NCBI GenBank assembly: GCA_048939995.1
Contig: JBHLOY010000011.1
Location: forward strand, 32,001-96,000
Length of the DNA: 64,000 nucleotides
Direction: 5' to 3'
DNA from: Promethearchaeota archaeon
Lineage (GTDB): Archaea; Asgardarchaeota; Lokiarchaeia; Sigyniarchaeales; SOKP01
In this document: in pieces, positions 581 to 42,799 of the stretch
How the letters are laid out: each line of letters begins with the position of its first letter
Numbering within the stretch: position 1 is the stretch's first letter
Position numbers and translations under genes: made by a program
The notes under the pieces: generated by a model
Database searches by the model: none
What the model was told of the DNA's origin: nothing
What the model saw: the letters and a program-made list of their open reading frames with translations, nothing else

Positions 581-796
581 TTGAATAGAGAAGTAATTTT
601 TCTCAGATTGACGGATGTAGGACGAAGTATTGATCTAAATAGAGCGAAAAATATATTTCCAGGTATTCCAGATAAACGAATAGTTAAAACAAAAGATAAC
701 CCCTACAATGTTAATATTACTGAAGCGTTAAAGTTAGAATTAACTCAAAATATCTCTTTTTCTAATTTTAGACTTCTTTATATAGAGGTTATATAA
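581..796 (+). pseudogene. Short ORF, probably a truncated N-terminal remnant of a larger protein
   Basis: Protein-like N-terminus (EVIFLRLTDVGRSIDL...FPGIPDKRIVKTKD) that degrades into sequence overlapping the 3' end of the convergent gene. Confidence 0.35.
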
Positions 797-2717
797 ACCT
801 CTTTTCAGCAGAATTTAAGATTTTAGCTAACATATCTTTATATGAAATACCGGCAAATTGTGACATTTTTGCTAAGTGCCCGTCCCAGCACCATCCTGGG
901 TTGGGGTTAACCTCTAATAGTTTTGGATTTCCATCACTATCTAGCCGCCAGTCAAAACGAGCATAATCTTGACATTCTAATCTGGTGAATAACTTTACAG
1001 AAGAGTTCTCAATTGTCTGAATTACTTCATCTGGAAGTTCTGCAGGTATAGATCTGAGATTCCAATAAGGAGAGTCTGGCAACCATTTCGCTTCGTATCC
1101 ACATATGTTTGGTAAACCAGAGGGTAAACCTGAATAATCCTCCTCGATTATTGGGAGCATAATGTAATCATATGGAGGATTTCCTATGATTCCTAAAGAC
1201 AAATCTTTACCCGGTAGGAATTGTTCTATTAGAATTGGTTTATCATATCCAAATTTGTTTCTAATATCTGTTATAGCATTTAATAATTGTTCTCCATTCT
1301 CAACTACACTATTTTGGGTAATTCCAAAACTAGAATCCCCAAAATTAGGTTTAACAATTGCAGGGAAATATAAGGGTAAATCTATAATTTTATCTTCTGG
1401 CTTTATAAATATAGATTCCGGCACTGGTATCTCTAGATCCTTTGCAATGCCTCTAATTAATGATTTATCATAGCAAAATGCCAGGCATTGAGGATTAGAA
1501 CCCGTATATGAAAATTTTAATATCTCTAAAAGAGCAGGTATATGTAATTCTTTCCGAGGATCATTAGAATAGCCTTCATCACATAAGTTAAAGACATAAT
1601 CTACTTTTCCCTTCAATTTTTCTAAATCGTGAATCAAAGTATCATGATTGTTTAAGTAAATAAAGCTATATCCTTTCAATTCTTTTAGAGCAGACTTTAA
1701 CTGATCTATTGTGTAGAAATCATCATCATCGAAAATTGTAGAAGGTTTTATCGTATCTGGTTTATTTGGGTCTCCAAAAAGAACTACTACGTTCTTTAAT
1801 ACTGGTATTCCTTTTTTTTTTGTTTCCGTCCACTCCTTCTTAGCAATAGCTGTTACTATTATTCTTCTTTCCATCATTCCTAAATCTTGTTGTCTTTGAG
1901 AATCTGGTGTTATTGTTCCATGAAATTTAATATCACTGAAACCTGCTTTTTCCAATATTTCTGAAATATTTTTTTTAGAATAGAGTCTTTCAGCATAAAA
2001 TTGATCGACCAGAACTCCTTTATTAACATGGCTAATAACCTCTCTAGAGATTAGCCTTTGATTATCTAAAGATAGTGAACGCTCACGACAAACAAAATAA
2101 TTCTTATCGATCCATTCCCATGAACGTGGTTGGAAATTATCTTTTACATATTCTCCATCTGTAATGTCAATTAATACTTTTCCCCAGGGTTTTAATGTAC
2201 GAAATGTTTCTTTTAATACAAGATAATCATCGTTGATAGATTCAAAATAACCAAAACTATTTCCTAGTATTGTAATAAAGTCAAAACTGTCTGGAGAATA
2301 AGGTAGCTTACGTGCATCTCCTTCTCGAAACTTTACTATTATTCCCATTTTTTTTGCAGTACTTTTAGCTTTTTGAATTAAATATCTTGATCGATCTATG
2401 CCTTCAACATTTTCAAATCCTCGTTTTGCTAATTCAATCGAATGCCTACCTTGACCACAACAAAGATCTAATATATGTTGATCAGGGCGAATTCCCAAAA
2501 TCTTAGAAAAAACATCAATTTCTGTGGAGGTAATCTTCTGATCTTCAACCACATCCCCATCGGTTTTTAAATAATATGCATTAAAGATATTTCTCCACCA
2601 GTCTTTTTTTACAAATTCCTCCAAATTCGAGACTGGGCCAAGACAAACAGGTTTTAATGTCTCCCTTTTACTTGTTAAAGATTTTTTATTCCCAGGATTA
2701 TTTTGCTTTAGTGACAT
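789..2717 (-). CDS. Class I SAM-dependent methyltransferase fused to a D-Ala-D-Ala-ligase-like ATP-grasp domain
   Basis: N-terminal LDLCCGQGRH SAM motif I and GDARKLP. C-terminal Ddl-like motifs FNLCDEG, YTGS, DKS, IVKPNFGDSSFGI, EQFLPG, RFDWR and LLEVNPNPG. Confidence 0.85.
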   Translation of the reverse strand: MSLKQNNPGNKKSLTSKRETLKPVCLGPVSNLEEFVKKDWWRNIFNAYYLKTDGDVVEDQKITSTEIDVFSKILGIRPDQHILDLCCGQGRHSIELAKRGFENVEGIDRSRYLIQKAKSTAKKMGIIVKFREGDARKLPYSPDSFDFITILGNSFGYFESINDDYLVLKETFRTLKPWGKVLIDITDGEYVKDNFQPRSWEWIDKNYFVCRERSLSLDNQRLISREVISHVNKGVLVDQFYAERLYSKKNISEILEKAGFSDIKFHGTITPDSQRQQDLGMMERRIIVTAIAKKEWTETKKKGIPVLKNVVVLFGDPNKPDTIKPSTIFDDDDFYTIDQLKSALKELKGYSFIYLNNHDTLIHDLEKLKGKVDYVFNLCDEGYSNDPRKELHIPALLEILKFSYTGSNPQCLAFCYDKSLIRGIAKDLEIPVPESIFIKPEDKIIDLPLYFPAIVKPNFGDSSFGITQNSVVENGEQLLNAITDIRNKFGYDKPILIEQFLPGKDLSLGIIGNPPYDYIMLPIIEEDYSGLPSGLPNICGYEAKWLPDSPYWNLRSIPAELPDEVIQTIENSSVKLFTRLECQDYARFDWRLDSDGNPKLLEVNPNPGWCWDGHLAKMSQFAGISYKDMLAKILNSAEKRFI

Positions 2718-3252
2718 TTTTAAATTCTTATTATAGATGTATTTGAATAACGAAAATTTTAATAATTCTTTTTAGAAATAGATTTTGAATACGATTTATA
2801 GGTGATATTCTTTTATTCATCAATTTTATTTTTCATGATGTTTAATGAAAAGTGCTTAGATTTAAATGAAGTATATCAATTATTTAAAATTTTTTATTTT
2901 ATCTTATTAGATAATAAATAAGATTAATTGCTTTTTAGATTCCAAATATCTCCAAAATGGGATAACTGATAATGATTCTTATGTAATCATAAACTATTTT
3001 AAGACTTATTAAAGCTTTAGGTCAATAAAACTAGAGTACTTAAATTATTCTTTTTATTATAAGCATTTTTCTCTAAAATTGGCCTTTTTGAATATTTTTT
3101 TTCTAGATTTTTGCAAACTGGATATAATAATTAATTTCTTTACCTTAAATAGTAATTAAAAATCCAATAAATTGGAAATATTTATATATGATTTTGATTT
3201 CTTACGGTATTTGAAAATATATATAAAATAATCTAAAATAGAGCTGAAAAGT

Positions 3253-3426
3253 TTGAATAATGAAATCACAACAGATTTAGGGAAAGATGAAGATGAGGAT
3301 TGGGATGAAGATGAGGATTGGGATGAAGATGAGGAATGGGATGAAGATGAGGAATGGGATGAAGACGAGGATTGGGATGAAGACGATGATTTAGACGATT
3401 ATGACGATGATGACGATGATGATTAG
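3253..3426 (+). CDS. 57-aa hyper-acidic Trp-repeat microprotein: MNNEITTDLGK(DEDE[D/E]W)5DEDDDLDDYDDDDDDD
   Basis: Manual translation from TTG 3253 (in-frame CTG 3244 is an alternative start) to TAG 3426. Repeat variation falls at third codon positions (GAT/GAC, GAT/GAA). TATA-like TTTATATA at about 3181 upstream and T-tracts downstream. Confidence 0.75.
   Translation: MNNEITTDLGKDEDEDWDEDEDWDEDEEWDEDEEWDEDEDWDEDDDLDDYDDDDDDD
3286..3375 (+). repeat. 18-bp tandem repeat x5 (GATGAAGAYGAGGAWTGG) followed by a GAY triplet run
   Basis: Directly visible; encodes DEDE[D/E]W units. Confidence 0.95.
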
Positions 3427-3530
3427 TAACTAGCAATCGAAATTGAAGGAAGTTTTTCAAATCAGGATTTTTTTAAATTAGATTCTTTTTTTGAATAAAA
3501 ATTTAATTTCAATATGAATTTTGATAACTT

Positions 3531-4199
3531 ATGTCAAAATTAGATAGTCCGAAATATCTTGCGATCCTCATATTAATTGGAGGTAAAAGTACTCGCTTCG
3601 GTACTGAGAAAGCTGTCGTTGAATTATTTGGAAAACCGCTTATCTTACATCAAATCGAAACATTAGCCAAATTCGATCAAAATATCTTCTTAATAGCTCA
3701 CTCAGATGAACAAATCTACAATTATAAGAGTGAAATTGATTTTCCAAGAGAAGTTACTTTTATTGTTGATGATCGCGAGATTTTTAAACATCCCAAAATC
3801 TATCGTCCAATGCTTGGAGTTTATTCCGGATTTAAGGAACTATTTAGACAAAGCTTCGAAAAAGCTTTTGTTTTATCATGTGATATGCCATTAATTAAAC
3901 CTGAAGTAATAGAATTTATGATTAAGCAATCTGCAGGTTATGAGTGCCTAATACCCCGATGGAAAAACGGATTTCTAGAACCTTATTTTGCGATTTATCC
4001 TGTTGAAAAAGGATATCAAAAAGCAAAGGAAATTTTGTTAAGCGAAAACTACGGATTACTTAACTTAATAGATAAAAATTGGAAGATTAATCATATTTCA
4101 GTGGAAGAGGAACTACAACCTTTAGATAAGAATTTATTAAGTTTAATTAATATTAAAGGTCCAATTGATCTACAAAAATTGACAAAATTATATCAATAA
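3531..4199 (+). CDS. mobA: Molybdenum cofactor guanylyltransferase
   Basis: LIGGKSTRFGTEKA, LSCDMP, EPYFAIY and INIKGPIDL motifs of the MobA/NTP_transf_3 family. Confidence 0.85.
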   Translation: MSKLDSPKYLAILILIGGKSTRFGTEKAVVELFGKPLILHQIETLAKFDQNIFLIAHSDEQIYNYKSEIDFPREVTFIVDDREIFKHPKIYRPMLGVYSGFKELFRQSFEKAFVLSCDMPLIKPEVIEFMIKQSAGYECLIPRWKNGFLEPYFAIYPVEKGYQKAKEILLSENYGLLNLIDKNWKINHISVEEELQPLDKNLLSLINIKGPIDLQKLTKLYQ

Positions 4200-41785: not shown

Positions 41786-42799
41786 ATGGAAACATATGAT
41801 CTAGTACTCAATGTTGAAGAAATTGAACAGAAATTTCCAGAGAATCCCATAGATTTCTTTAAAGGCAAGCGGATGTGTCTATTTAAAGCATGTTTAGAGA
41901 AATATTTTCCGGGGGTAAGGTGGGGTATTCAAGATCTACTTGAGTTTTTTCAACTGGATATATCTACTTGTAAAAACCAATCTTGTTGCACTGGAACCTT
42001 TTTTCAAAGAAATCTAATAACCAGAGCCCAATTTGCTGCCATAAACGAGCGAAATTTAAATGAAATCAATCAACAAGCAGATATTTTGCTTTTCTCATGT
42101 AATGGATGCTATAATTCTCTCTTGAGAGGAAGGGAATTTTTACAATCGCCTCAAGTCAGGAATAAAACTCAAGAAATCTTAGATCAACTAAAGAAGAACT
42201 CAAGAGGAGATAATTATCCCGGTAAATACGATATTCTAGAGAATCCAAATCTTAGATTCATCCATGATTTAGATTTACTCTATTTGATAAGAAATGATGT
42301 TGTAAATTCATTAAAATTTGATTTGAGTGGACTTAATGTTGCTATTCATTATGGGTGTCATTACCTAAACTTATCTCGTGATAAAAGAACATTTAATCAC
42401 TATTTAAAAGATAAAACCAAAATAGAGGAATTAATCAACCTCTTTGGTGGTAATCCTGTTGATTACCAAGAAAGAGAGGCTTGTTGTGGATGGGGTGCAT
42501 CCCAATTATTGATAAATCCCCGTGAAGCATTGAAAGTTACTGCTAATAAATTGAAAAGTGCTCAAAATGTTGGTGCTGACTTTATCGTAATGCCATGCCC
42601 AACTTGTTTATACACTTTAAGTAAACCTGAGTATAGAGAAAAAATGAATAAATGGTTTAATGAAAAATTAGATATTCCTACTATTCACATTAATGAATTA
42701 ATTGCAATTTTACGAGGTTGTGAAGAAGAACGTTGTATTACTTTGCGAAGAAAAACGCCACGATTAGAAGAAATATTCAATATAATAACTCAACAATAG
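41786..42799 (+). CDS. hdrB: Heterodisulfide reductase subunit B-like (two CCG domains)
   Basis: QSCCTG, SCNGC, HYGCH, ACCGWG and PCPTC. Confidence 0.87.
   Translation: METYDLVLNVEEIEQKFPENPIDFFKGKRMCLFKACLEKYFPGVRWGIQDLLEFFQLDISTCKNQSCCTGTFFQRNLITRAQFAAINERNLNEINQQADILLFSCNGCYNSLLRGREFLQSPQVRNKTQEILDQLKKNSRGDNYPGKYDILENPNLRFIHDLDLLYLIRNDVVNSLKFDLSGLNVAIHYGCHYLNLSRDKRTFNHYLKDKTKIEELINLFGGNPVDYQEREACCGWGASQLLINPREALKVTANKLKSAQNVGADFIVMPCPTCLYTLSKPEYREKMNKWFNEKLDIPTIHINELIAILRGCEEERCITLRRKTPRLEEIFNIITQQ

Follow-up and report, generated by a model that had tools for sequence, protein, structure and literature searches.

Pup is a disordered tag that is joined to lysine residues of its targets (PMC5286830), and PafA is the ligase that attaches it (PMC10465538). 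LysW carries its cargo on a C-terminal Glu via LysX (PMC12998189), and TTLL4 glutamylates acidic disordered regions (PMC10987829). Here, we compare these systems with a locus in a 64,000-nucleotide stretch of DNA from a Promethearchaeota archaeon (the window), in which a gene for a hyper-acidic, Trp-repeat microprotein stands divergent from a gene for a methyltransferase fused to an ATP-grasp ligase.

In the Pup–PafA–Mpa system of Actinobacteria, a small disordered acidic protein is likewise accompanied by a carboxylate-amine ligase that uses ATP and by a proteasomal AAA+ ATPase homologous to PAN. A disordered protein whose gene is linked to those of a ligase and of a proteasomal ATPase is found here as well, but by analogy only; in the window's genome, the PAN genes are unlinked. 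Moreover, the ligase is a Ddl-like ATP-grasp enzyme fused to a methyltransferase, the microproteins lack the conserved GGQ/GGE C terminus, and the PAN gene is linked in some species only. Neither the Pup profile (PF05639, E ≤ 1) nor the Pup-ligase profile for PafA/Dop (PF03136, E ≤ 0.01) matched anything in the genome.

The LysW/ArgW–LysX/ArgX systems also feature a small, very acidic protein, whose acidic-Trp tail is recognized by an ATP-grasp ligase and whose cargo resides on a carboxylate (PMC12998189). In contrast to LysW and ArgW, the 57-residue protein encoded in the window has no zinc ribbon (CxxC...CxxC) and no Cys, the microproteins lack a conserved C-terminal Glu (EDWGE), and no LysW model of NCBIfam matched this protein or its paralog. 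The adjoining ATP-grasp ligase is of the Ddl type rather than the RimK/LysX type, and there are no LysJ/K/Y/Z-type pathway genes near the microprotein gene. Long (E/D)nW tails do occur on LysW-like zinc-ribbon proteins, and unrelated zinc-ribbon/(E/D)nW proteins match NF041070.

Enzymes of the TTL family have an ATP-grasp fold. The TTLL glutamylases (tubulin tails, Nap1, Npm2) are ligases that act on poly-acidic, disordered, aromatic-anchored, DNA-mimetic stretches (PMC10987829), and many of the microproteins end in ...EEY or ...DY, as tubulin tails do. However, the enzyme here is Ddl-like and not a member of the TTL family, and it would act on a free-standing microprotein. RimK is an ATP-grasp ligase that extends the C terminus of an acidic protein, S6 (PMC10375531), whereas the enzyme described here belongs to another subfamily, and the microproteins have no S6-like fold and variable C termini.

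A hyper-acidic Trp-repeat microprotein

The first-pass annotation of the window had reported an ORF of 57 residues, 41 of them Asp or Glu, with five evenly spaced Trp residues encoded by an 18-bp repeat and with an antisense shadow ORF. Its coordinates and content proved exact, and the shadow ORF exists.

3253..3426, + strand: hyper-acidic Trp-repeat microprotein CDS (TTG start, TAG stop, 57 aa)
3286..3391, + strand: 18-bp tandem repeat, unit GATGAAGATGAGGATTGG = DEDEDW, 5.9 copies (Tandem Repeats Finder: 95% matches, score 177)
3266..3460, − strand: antisense shadow ORF of 64 aa, rich in His and Pro, no gene (ORF ends vary in orthologs)

The protein contains 27 Asp and 14 Glu residues (41 of 57), carries a net charge of about −40, has Trp at residues 17, 23, 29, 35, and 41 (a period of six), and terminates in a run of seven Asp residues. 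The 18-bp repeat is the slippage-prone core of the gene, and the use of Asp and Glu codons is similar to that of the genome. Because the antisense frames in orthologs have unrelated ends and no conserved start, the shadow ORF was not considered a gene.

Gene callers pass over the microprotein ORF. Its earlier description as unannotated agrees with the absence of the exact sequences of the ORF, a paralog, and two orthologs from a collection of ~15 billion predicted proteins. Searches of Pfam and NCBIfam at E ≤ 10 returned nothing for the family but one meaningless 7.5-bit match, and hmmscan at the same threshold gave no matches for six family members. A word-based homology search with the paralog yielded 750 candidates, none with E ≤ 0.01, and a single-protein search of the genome with the microprotein missed even the paralog. 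Because the extreme composition defeats such word-based and single-protein searches, we employed degenerate DNA patterns instead.

The paralog is present in the ESM Atlas, where its model has a pLDDT of 0.26, and the family is predicted to be disordered. Structure matches of this model were disregarded, and the protein atlas held only unnamed clusters with scores <0.9. Two readings of short motifs were rejected. An EF-hand-like reading of DWDNDGDYEED, made by eye, fails in register in subtype B (DDYNDGEW) and has an aromatic residue at position 12, and the hydrophobic +3 position of a LIR/AIM-type (W-x-x-L) reading varies.

Orthologs, flanking signals, and the wider family

A synteny search upstream of mobA, as had been proposed, recovered orthologs in four other species, with mobA downstream and the reading frame intact. 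Their start codons (ATG, GTG, GTG, and ATG) are identical in position to the TTG of the window ORF, and they contain two or three Trp units with Phe, Ile, or Thr variants. Pairwise differences in the five-species comparison number 74, 57, and 191 at the first, second, and third codon positions, and thus third positions dominate. Frame-disrupting repeat variation, which the first-pass annotation had named as grounds for doubting the gene, was looked for in these relatives, and the variation observed keeps the frame. The ORF is surrounded by the following elements.

3176..3210, + strand: conserved upstream block with a TATA-like box (TTTATATA, 3181–3188), from the five-species DNA alignment
3240..3247, + strand: Shine-Dalgarno-like element AGAGCTGA, 5 nt before the start codon
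3453..3492, + strand: oligo-T tracts (T5, T7, T7), read from the sequence, 27–66 nt past the stop codon
2718..3252, no strand: divergent intergenic region from the ligase gene to the small gene, 535 bp, very AT-rich (17–21% GC)
3531..4199, + strand: mobA-like nucleotidyltransferase, the syntenic downstream neighbor in genera g1 and g12

The block at 3176..3210 is the most conserved noncoding stretch of the five-species alignment and is probably the archaeal promoter of the small gene. The Shine-Dalgarno-like element reads GGAGCTGA in three orthologs and AGGAGAG in the fourth. The oligo-T tracts, which are partly kept in L003 and L005, probably constitute an archaeal terminator between the small gene and mobA, which starts 104 nt downstream of the small gene on the same strand. 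Judged by its sequence, 3253–3426 is very probably a real translated gene.

Family members are acidic/aromatic microproteins of 31–83 residues (median 49), and a Shine-Dalgarno-like motif precedes the in-frame start of 41 of 53 small ORFs, versus 8% per random position. N-terminal GP-Lys or GLKK motifs are conserved, NDG[DE][WYF] occurs in 30 of the 53 members, and a C-terminal aromatic residue is present in 39; the C termini themselves (n = 53) include Y 18, D 16, S 7, F 5, and E 1. The acidic core contains no Thr or Ser, and Lys is exclusively N-terminal. Subtype C ends in F/I/Y-Tyr-Ser, which is of the Hb-Y-X type and resembles the end of the genome's canonical PAN (...RLYS). Each genome has one to several loci, among which the window copy is the locus-conserved one. 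A paralog with an ATG start and GGAGG is located at G000:C17, paralogs B, C, and D reside in unrelated gene contexts, and the genes after the paralogs are convergent.

The strict motif [DE]3-W-[DE]4, sought as a degenerate DNA pattern and serving as a crude proxy for the family, has seven matches in the window's genome and is present in 74 of 130 related genomes. Since the reversed-pattern control gave no match in any Asgard genome scanned for this pattern, the motif occurs above chance. The family is fast-evolving, slippage-prone, and widespread in one Asgard (Loki-type) family. The earlier proposal of a multivalent disordered adaptor therefore holds insofar as the gene encodes a conserved, multivalent, acidic/aromatic small protein that is predicted to be disordered, but the eukaryote-like analogies attached to it are unsupported. 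Acidic-Trp runs are common in bacteria too, so that a likeness to the WASP/WAVE acidic motif (Arp2/3 complex) or to the W-acidic motif bound by the TPR domain of kinesin light chain does not identify a eukaryote-type signature. No connection of the gene with actin regulators, or with TPR or MPN proteins, emerged.

A divergent ligase gene and a variant PAN gene

The first-pass annotation had overlooked the informative context of the gene, in which a methyltransferase/ATP-grasp ligase gene is divergent from it and is often accompanied by a PAN-like gene.

789..2717, − strand: SAM-methyltransferase/ATP-grasp ligase gene, 642 aa (Pfam, NCBIfam, and PDB matches)

The enzyme joins a class I SAM methyltransferase (residues ~40–265) to a D-Ala-D-Ala-ligase-like ATP-grasp domain (~340–640), which matches Dala_Dala_lig_C and not RimK-type models. 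Its first 30 residues are rich in Lys and Arg, counted from the N terminus of the enzyme. Among the weak PDB matches of the methyltransferase domain are the peptide-tailoring enzymes LahSB, CypM, and MccD. Assignment as a true D-alanine-D-alanine ligase was rejected, because the best NCBIfam score is 124 bits versus a cut-off of 243 for that family and the D-Ala pocket (Glu15, Tyr216, Ser281, Leu282) is unconserved: relative to DdlB, the substitutions are Y216→W, S281→G, and L282→H, and the Glu15 segment is unaligned. The ATP and catalytic residues are intact in the same comparison, and from its aligned residues the enzyme appears to be a ligase that is intact but has a changed substrate pocket.

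Among the neighbors of the acidic genes, the ligase gene is the most frequent (13 loci), and at 21 of 30 enzyme loci an acidic Trp ORF lies 300–1050 nt away on the 5′ side in divergent orientation. In genera g16 and g17, the acidic gene precedes the enzyme gene in tandem on the same strand, with a spacing of −7 to 130 nt, and the adjacency thus persists across four genera despite divergent versus tandem orientation. mobA is missing from the tandem arrangement and is probably not a functional part of the module. In three genomes (G006, G016, and G023), both genes are jointly absent between the transporter and mobA.

Motif and enzyme also co-vary. On a SecY tree of 96 genomes, their 2 × 2 table is 54/9/7/26, and 16 independent contrasts gave ~10.6 concordant versus 0.1 opposite (median p 0.002), with a high turnover of the module (at least 27 gains or losses among the 96 genomes). 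Note that physical linkage, or the loss of a single contig from a MAG, can account for much of this pattern. When only unlinked loci were counted, the contrasts were 6.2 versus 0.8 (p 0.07, not significant), and in the window's genus the unlinked paralogs are almost confined to genomes with the enzyme (17/21 versus 1/10, unlinked loci only).

Their distribution argues against an obligate link, and each partner occurs without the other in further Asgard families. Full-length enzymes with 65–68% identity are encoded in four other families (f6, f7, f11, and f22), where no acidic small ORF lies within 2.5 kb of the enzyme loci; therefore, the enzyme does not need the microprotein everywhere. A looser motif searched genome-wide gave no match in f6 and one stray match in f22. 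The motif in turn occurs in families that have no detected full-length enzyme (46/59 in f10, 11/16 in f25, and 8/19 in f15), with one weak ATP-grasp-only match each in f10 and f25. Bacterial acidic-Trp ORFs have a ligase neighbor at 1 of 119 loci, with 26% identity to the ATP-grasp domain, and this neighbor is taken from its sequence to be an ordinary Ddl.

A gene for a variant PAN proteasomal AAA+ ATPase directly follows the enzyme gene in 25 genomes (gap 20–102 nt), and two genomes, G138 and G117, have the acidic gene in divergent orientation to the variant PAN gene. A Hb-Phe-X form occurs among the PAN paralogs. Possession of two PAN paralogs co-varies with both the enzyme (p 0.04) and the motif (p 0.01), and microprotein, enzyme, and variant PAN co-vary on the species tree. 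In the window's genome, neither PAN paralog is near the module. The module itself showed no 20S genes. The context of ligase and variant PAN hints at a protein-modification or proteostasis module.

Possible roles of the microprotein

We regard functional coupling of the microprotein to the ligase module as an even prospect. Our preferred reading, held tentatively and by analogy, is that the microprotein may be a polyanionic protein partner of this module, whether as substrate, tag, or regulator, for which Pup–PafA–Mpa, LysW–LysX, S6–RimK, and TTLL-modified acidic tails would be the models. We infer a physical interaction in which the microprotein would bind the methyltransferase/ATP-grasp enzyme through its dense carboxylates and its Trp anchors, and the docked microprotein would then be modified or ligated as a substrate, carrier, or tag; alternatively, it might regulate the enzyme. 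Covalent modification or ligation is in itself doubtful. The unconserved C terminus of the microproteins (Y, D, F, S, and others), unlike that of LysW or Pup, counts against our preferred reading. A bolder version, which we consider quite unlikely, is a conjugation or tail-modification system independent of ubiquitin and Pup. The enzyme would activate carboxylates of the microprotein and attach it to targets, or else extend and cap it, which could create a C-terminal Hb-Tyr-X-like docking tail, and the product would be handed over to the variant PAN unfoldase.

Alternatively, the microprotein could be a free-standing polyanion that mimics nucleic acid or chaperones basic surfaces (histones, ribosomal proteins, or others), with ligase adjacency reflecting inherited gene order of no functional significance. 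The first-pass annotation had suggested a nucleic-acid mimic or histone chaperone, and this is possible given that the window's genome has five histone-fold genes and that related Asgard lineages carry acidic-Trp tails on PCNA and on an Spt5-NGN protein, but the histone genes were checked and none adjoins an acidic gene. Acidic disordered regions with aromatic anchors are DNA mimetics for histones (PMC10987829), and acidic-Trp runs are generic: unrelated phyla have them in 42 small ORFs and, among larger proteins, in 77 tails or linkers. The unrelated contexts of paralogs B, C, and D and the lack of phylum-wide co-distribution of motif and enzyme fit this explanation as well. We nevertheless judge it somewhat unlikely, because the ligase adjacency outlasts the change of orientation across four genera, enzyme and motif shift together in independent contrasts, and unlinked paralogs in the window's genus occur almost only where the enzyme is present. 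It is highly unlikely that the ORF is non-functional, either a GA-rich microsatellite open by chance or a cis-acting leader that tunes downstream mobA by translation. Acidic runs in nascent peptides destabilize ribosomes, the ORF lies upstream of mobA on the same strand, gene callers skip it, and slippage cannot break a frame whose 18-bp unit is a multiple of three. However, the start codon, Shine-Dalgarno-like element, and promoter-like block are all conserved, as are the non-repeat motifs GP-Lys and NDG[DE][WYF], and the protein diverges by substitution with third-position bias while remaining rich in Asp and Glu. A leader peptide for mobA is unlikely, since oligo-T tracts stand ahead of mobA, the convergent genes after the paralogs leave nothing to regulate, and in g16 and g17 it is the ligase gene, not mobA, that follows.

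Two further assignments compare the microprotein with described families. As in graspetide loci, the neighbor of a short, hypervariable peptide gene with repeats is an ATP-grasp enzyme, here fused to a UbiE-like methyltransferase, and UbiE-like or O-methyltransferases are frequent in such loci (PMC8939145). A RiPP-type precursor, with a leader and a repetitive core cross-linked or methylated by the enzyme, would also accord with the weak matches to LahSB, CypM, and MccD and with the high turnover of the module. We deem it very improbable, because the ATP-grasp domain is of the Ddl type and outside the RimK/MdnB/MdnC clade, the core has no Ser or Thr and Lys only near the N terminus, so that the usual ester and amide partners are missing, no protease or export genes recur at the locus, and the companion gene encodes an intracellular unfoldase. 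An archaeal Sem1/DSS1 homolog that binds PCI-domain or OB-fold proteins, a likeness drawn in the first-pass annotation, would likewise be a small, disordered protein whose acidic patches contain Trp or Phe, and DLGK-DEDEDW and NDGEWDDD loosely resemble DSS1 motifs. This assignment is extremely improbable and, at the level of sequence, largely refuted. At E ≤ 10, the DSS1/Sem1 model (PF05160) has no match anywhere in the genome and the six family members lack any hmmscan match; the family, with its repeat architecture, varies widely in length and in the number of repeats, and the conserved C-terminal helix is absent. Moreover, matches of the PCI model (PF01399) are to repeated winged-helix proteins, and 4 of 14 control prokaryotes yield matches to this model as well.

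When a small protein has an extreme composition, it eludes both gene callers and homology tools, and in this way a whole family has gone unannotated in the archaea most closely related to eukaryotes. The recurrent genetic coupling of the microprotein to a ligase and to a second, non-canonical proteasomal ATPase offers an experimental entry into protein modification and proteostasis in Asgard archaea. Should the microprotein be a substrate or tag of the ligase, then small-protein tagging or the modification of acidic tails would have been invented independently for a third time; if not, the gene would still illustrate how a disordered polyanion under selection can be driven by slippage while locked in frame.

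A probable acidic tryptophan-repeat gene upstream of mobA

The first-pass annotation had described a hyper-acidic Trp-repeat ORF with an antisense shadow, and both are indeed present in the window, which corresponds to G000:C7:32001-96000 of a 3.75-Mb genome with 30.5% GC. The 57 codons are open from a TTG start to a TAG stop and specify 27 Asp and 14 Glu (41/57), a single Lys, and Trp at residues 17, 23, 29, 35, and 41 (five), for a net charge of approximately -40.

3253-3426, plus strand: microprotein ORF
3286-3391: 18-bp tandem repeat, unit GATGAAGATGAGGATTGG (DEDEDW), 5.9 copies, TRF score 177, 95% matches
3266-3460, antisense: His/Pro-rich ORF opposite the microprotein gene
3' of the microprotein stop codon, before mobA: oligo-T tracts T5, T7, and T7, read from the sequence

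Orthologues of mobA were fetched from 22 species of the genus. In the four closest relatives (mobA 79-87% identical, tblastn), an acidic ORF occupies the equivalent site on the same strand, 100-140 nt 5' of mobA, which provides the synteny that the first-pass annotation had proposed to look for. The start codons aligned with the window TTG are ATG, GTG, GTG, and ATG, and 5-12 bases 5' of the start lies GGAGCTGA (window version AGAGCTGA), near the anti-Shine-Dalgarno (SD) complement. The best-conserved non-coding block is located ~45-75 nt 5' of the start and holds a TATA-like box (TTTATATA). Frame-disrupting repeat variation, which had been named as grounds for discarding the gene, was not observed among these orthologues; all are open, encode 43-59 aa, and vary by substitution, with W/F/I/T at anchor positions and D/E swaps. 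Pairwise differences at codon positions 1/2/3 are 74/57/191, and D/E codon choice (GAT 0.81, GAA 0.64) is close to the values for the genome's long genes (0.86, 0.77). Note that frame preservation alone is weak evidence, because slippage of an 18-bp unit leaves the frame intact in any case. The argument is carried by conservation of the start codon, the SD, the promoter-like block, and motifs outside the repeat, from which we judge that the gene is very probably real and, with high confidence, that 3253-3426 is translated.

A family of acidic microproteins

A six-frame scan of G000 for 25-residue windows containing 17 or more D/E returned seven matches, one of which is a second small acidic ORF (C17:427796-427996(+), or L032:3297-3497) encoding 66 aa from an ATG with GGAGG at -7 and with an architecture like that of the microprotein. 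The Atlas model of this paralogue is disordered (pLDDT 0.26). It carries LDDYNDGEWDDDFEY and a D16 run, and it is flanked by a divergent coiled-coil/HEAT-repeat gene and by a convergent 158-aa gene that appears cyclophilin-like by eye.

Because this acidic composition defeats both profile and word searches, we adopted the degenerate DNA pattern GANGANGANTGGGANGANGANGAN, representing [DE]3-W-[DE]4, with the reversed pattern as a control. Matches were found in 24/42 genomes of the genus (the window's included), 74/130 of the taxonomic family, and 2/19 of those from sister families within the order; the control gave 0 matches in all of these genomes. The surrounding ORFs are mostly 31-83 aa (median 49), with 43% D, 19% E, 5.8% W, and a modal aromatic spacing of 6. 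An SD-like motif precedes an in-frame start in 41/53 ORFs versus 8% per random position. Common features include an N-terminal [FLY]-x-GP-(K/R)3 or GLKK, a turn-like NDG[DE][WYF] motif (30/53), and an aromatic residue among the last four positions (39/53). At least four subtypes can be distinguished.

Subtypes of the microprotein family
Subtype A: mobA/ligase-linked; includes the window gene
Subtype B: has LDDYNDGEWDDDFEY, as does the paralogue
Subtype C: ~42 aa; ends F/I/Y-Tyr-Ser
Subtype D: Lys-rich head

The neighbors of subtype B are unchanged in 10-11 loci. Subtype C loci (L034, L036, L040, L041, L044, and L054 (genus g1), and L091) encode ~36-56 aa, and all seven except L091 are convergent with a deoxyhypusine synthase gene (Pfam DS). 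Their ending is of the Hb-Tyr-X type, as in the genome's canonical proteasomal AAA+ ATPase (PAN; ...RLYS, L408).

No Pfam or NCBIfam family matches the members, and a search for four of them as exact sequences in ~15 billion collected proteins found none, in keeping with the earlier description of the window ORF as unannotated. As judged by these comparisons, the family is new and without detectable homology to named families.

A methyltransferase/ATP-grasp enzyme is the commonest neighbor

When the neighbors of 53 small acidic ORFs were clustered, the commonest (13 loci) proved to be a homologue of the product of the divergent window ORF.

789-2717, minus strand: 642 aa; class I SAM methyltransferase (~40-265) and D-Ala-D-Ala-ligase (Ddl)-like ATP-grasp (~340-640)

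Public annotation reads only "methyltransferase domain-containing protein" or "D-alanine-D-alanine ligase". Alignment to Ddl structures shows the ATP-grasp catalytic set to be whole (equivalents of DdlB K97, K144, S150, E180, K215, R255, D257, E270, and N272), with pocket changes Y216 to W, S281 to G, and L282 to H and with the N-terminal Glu15 segment unmatched, and the protein scores far under every Ddl cut-off. Because the catalytic set is kept, the pocket residues are changed, and the cut-offs are missed, the enzyme is predicted to be an active carboxylate-amine ligase with a substrate other than that of Ddl.

Beside it, a 71-aa ORF at 581-796(+) resembles what is left, after truncation, of the 5' part of a gene that encodes 370-405 aa and adjoins the ligase gene in L100, L103, L116, and L129; it has no Pfam match and is probably a pseudogene in the window.

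Linkage and co-variation

At 21/30 enzyme loci, the strand opposite the enzyme gene carries an acidic Trp ORF 300-1050 nt from the enzyme's 5' end. Of the nine exceptions, two or more are truncated by a contig edge on that side, and in others the acidic gene is 2-5 kb off. In genera g16 and g17, it is co-oriented with the enzyme gene and sits immediately 5' of it (-7 to 130 nt), and in three genomes (G006, G016, and G023) both genes are jointly absent between a transporter gene and mobA. At L068-L073 and L080 (g16, g17) and L091 (g12), the gene divergent from the acidic gene encodes a 140-240 aa protein with no Pfam match and, by eye, a ribbon-helix-helix-like N-terminus (...FLGLRLSEKTLKRLDLVA...), which could be a local regulator.

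For the 96 genomes of the family with a completeness of 85% or more, enzyme/motif counts are 54 (+/+), 9 (+/-), 7 (-/+), and 26 (-/-), and each character undergoes at least 27 changes on a SecY tree. Well-supported branches provide 16 independent contrasts; enzyme and motif change in the same direction in ~10.6 of these and in opposite directions in 0.1, and the remaining 5.3 show no motif difference (median p 0.002 by sign test). Because a single deletion or a single unassembled contig can remove adjacent genes together, we repeated the test counting only motif matches on another contig or >10 kb from the enzyme. The contrasts were then 6.2 same, 0.8 opposite, and 9.1 without difference (median p 0.07), which is a trend short of significance overall. 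In the window's genus alone, the unlinked motif counts are 17/21 versus 1/10.

The genes adjoining displaced acidic genes in genomes G138 and G117 encode PAN-type ATPases (AAA, AAA_lid_3, and Prot_ATP_ID_OB_C domains). In 25 genomes, of which 21 belong to g12 and 4 to the window's genus, a co-oriented PAN-like gene begins 20-102 nt (median 45) 3' of the enzyme gene. These ligase-linked PANs have a Walker A of G[F/L/Y]PGTGKT in place of GPPGTGKT and end Hb-Phe-X rather than Hb-Tyr-X; their opening of the 20S gate may not be canonical. Variant loci include L113, L107, L110, L115, L117, L119-L122, L126, and L127. Possession of two PAN paralogues tracks the enzyme (47/16/9/24, median p 0.04) as well as the motif (median p 0.01). 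In the window genome, both PAN genes are unlinked to the enzyme/microprotein module (C27 ends ...RLYS, C26 ends ...ELFS).

Enzyme and acidic proteins also occur apart. Four further Asgard families (f6 4/4, f7 2/2, f11 4/5, and f22 6/6) encode the full-length enzyme at 65-68% identity with no acidic small ORF within 2.5 kb of it, and a looser motif searched genome-wide gave zero matches in f6 and one stray match in f22; therefore, the ligase would have some substrate independent of these microproteins. Full-length enzyme was not found in f8, f10, f15, f17, or f25 (single weak ATP-grasp-only matches in f10 and f25), and the motif occurs without it in f10 (46/59), f25 (11/16), and f15 (8/19); acidic-Trp proteins therefore can work without the ligase. 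The coupling looks like a lineage-specific addition.

Acidic-Trp runs in other proteins

A doubled-motif scan of one genome per prokaryotic species found at least 119 loci, with Planctomycetota, Gemmatimonadota, Chloroflexota, Thermoproteota, and others among the phyla listed; small ORFs make up 42 of the 119 matches listed, and in the other 77 the run is a tail or linker within a larger protein. The LysW/ArgW carrier model is the best match, below the curated cut-off, for two zinc-ribbon proteins whose long tails are of the (E/D)nW type (E 6e-7 and 2.6e-10). Within the Asgard phylum, the motif occurs in 127/251 genomes; it forms a C-terminal PCNA tail in f25 and the tail of an Spt5-NGN protein in one f1 genome. 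Acidic-Trp runs are thus a general device. They are common in bacteria and not specific to Asgard archaea, and the first-pass reading of a eukaryote-type interaction signal is weakened by this spread.

Several individual cases were recorded. In LysW-like zinc-ribbon proteins L157 and L165 (Chloroflexota) and L193 (Methanomethylicia), long repeat tails replace the short EDWGE tail, with the same sub-cut-off NCBIfam best match. The PCNA tails (...ADEDWDEDEDEDEDWDEDEE) are at L276, L278, L281, L282, L284, and L285, with PCNA_N/PCNA_C confirmed for L276 and L284. The Spt5-NGN protein (L066:787-1548(+), ~255 aa) carries an extended acidic tail with the terminus ...EEWEEDDEWSKFDGF, and an ORF of the window genome (C37, start near 41806(-)) that ends ...EEDDEWAKFDGF appears similar. 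Tiny f15 ORFs (L286-L293; 25-40 aa, e.g. 'M.DYRYPPEDDEEEWEE..EEDW'), many with SD-like motifs and all ending in Trp, may be a distinct acidic micro-ORF family. An acidic-Trp stretch ~3.2 kb 3' of mobA (G019:C67:7663-7742(-)) is probably an insert in a beta-CASP/metallo-beta-lactamase gene; the L013 orthologue has an acidic insert at the equivalent site.

A candidate partner for the ligase

Under the best-supported reading, the microprotein would be a protein partner dedicated to the ligase and, where there is one, to the PAN paralogue. It would dock on the ligase through charge and Trp anchors, whereupon its carboxylates would be the site of modification or ligation, or it would modulate the enzyme. 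Pairings of a small acidic or disordered protein with a carboxylate-activating ligase have precedents in LysW-LysX (PMC12998189), in S6-RimK (PMC10375531), in TTLL4, which acts on DNA-mimicking acidic disordered regions (PMC10987829), and in Pup-PafA-Mpa (PMC5286830, PMC10465538). Membership in the LysW, S6-RimK, TTLL, and Pup families was rejected. Unlike LysW, the microprotein has neither a zinc ribbon nor a conserved C-terminal Glu; in contrast to Pup-PafA-Mpa systems, the window's genome yielded no Pup or PafA; and, unlike in RimK/LysX and MdnC systems, the ATP-grasp partner is of neither RimK nor MdnC type.

Rival readings of the ORF differ in what they take from these data. A free-standing nucleic-acid mimic or chaperone would suit families that carry the motif without the enzyme, and it would leave the co-variation of the two aside; a RiPP precursor would likewise be a small protein beside an ATP-grasp gene, here one that is not MdnC-type. 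A non-functional repeat or leader ORF would draw on the repeat itself, to be set against the conserved start and upstream signals. The Sem1/DSS1 analogy, offered by the first-pass annotation for a small acidic protein, did not hold up, as the profile test gave no match and the PCI matches were unconvincing. With ligase partnership as the preferred reading, a specific, testable partner hypothesis for the microprotein is now in hand, and the function that we assign to it is a proposal.
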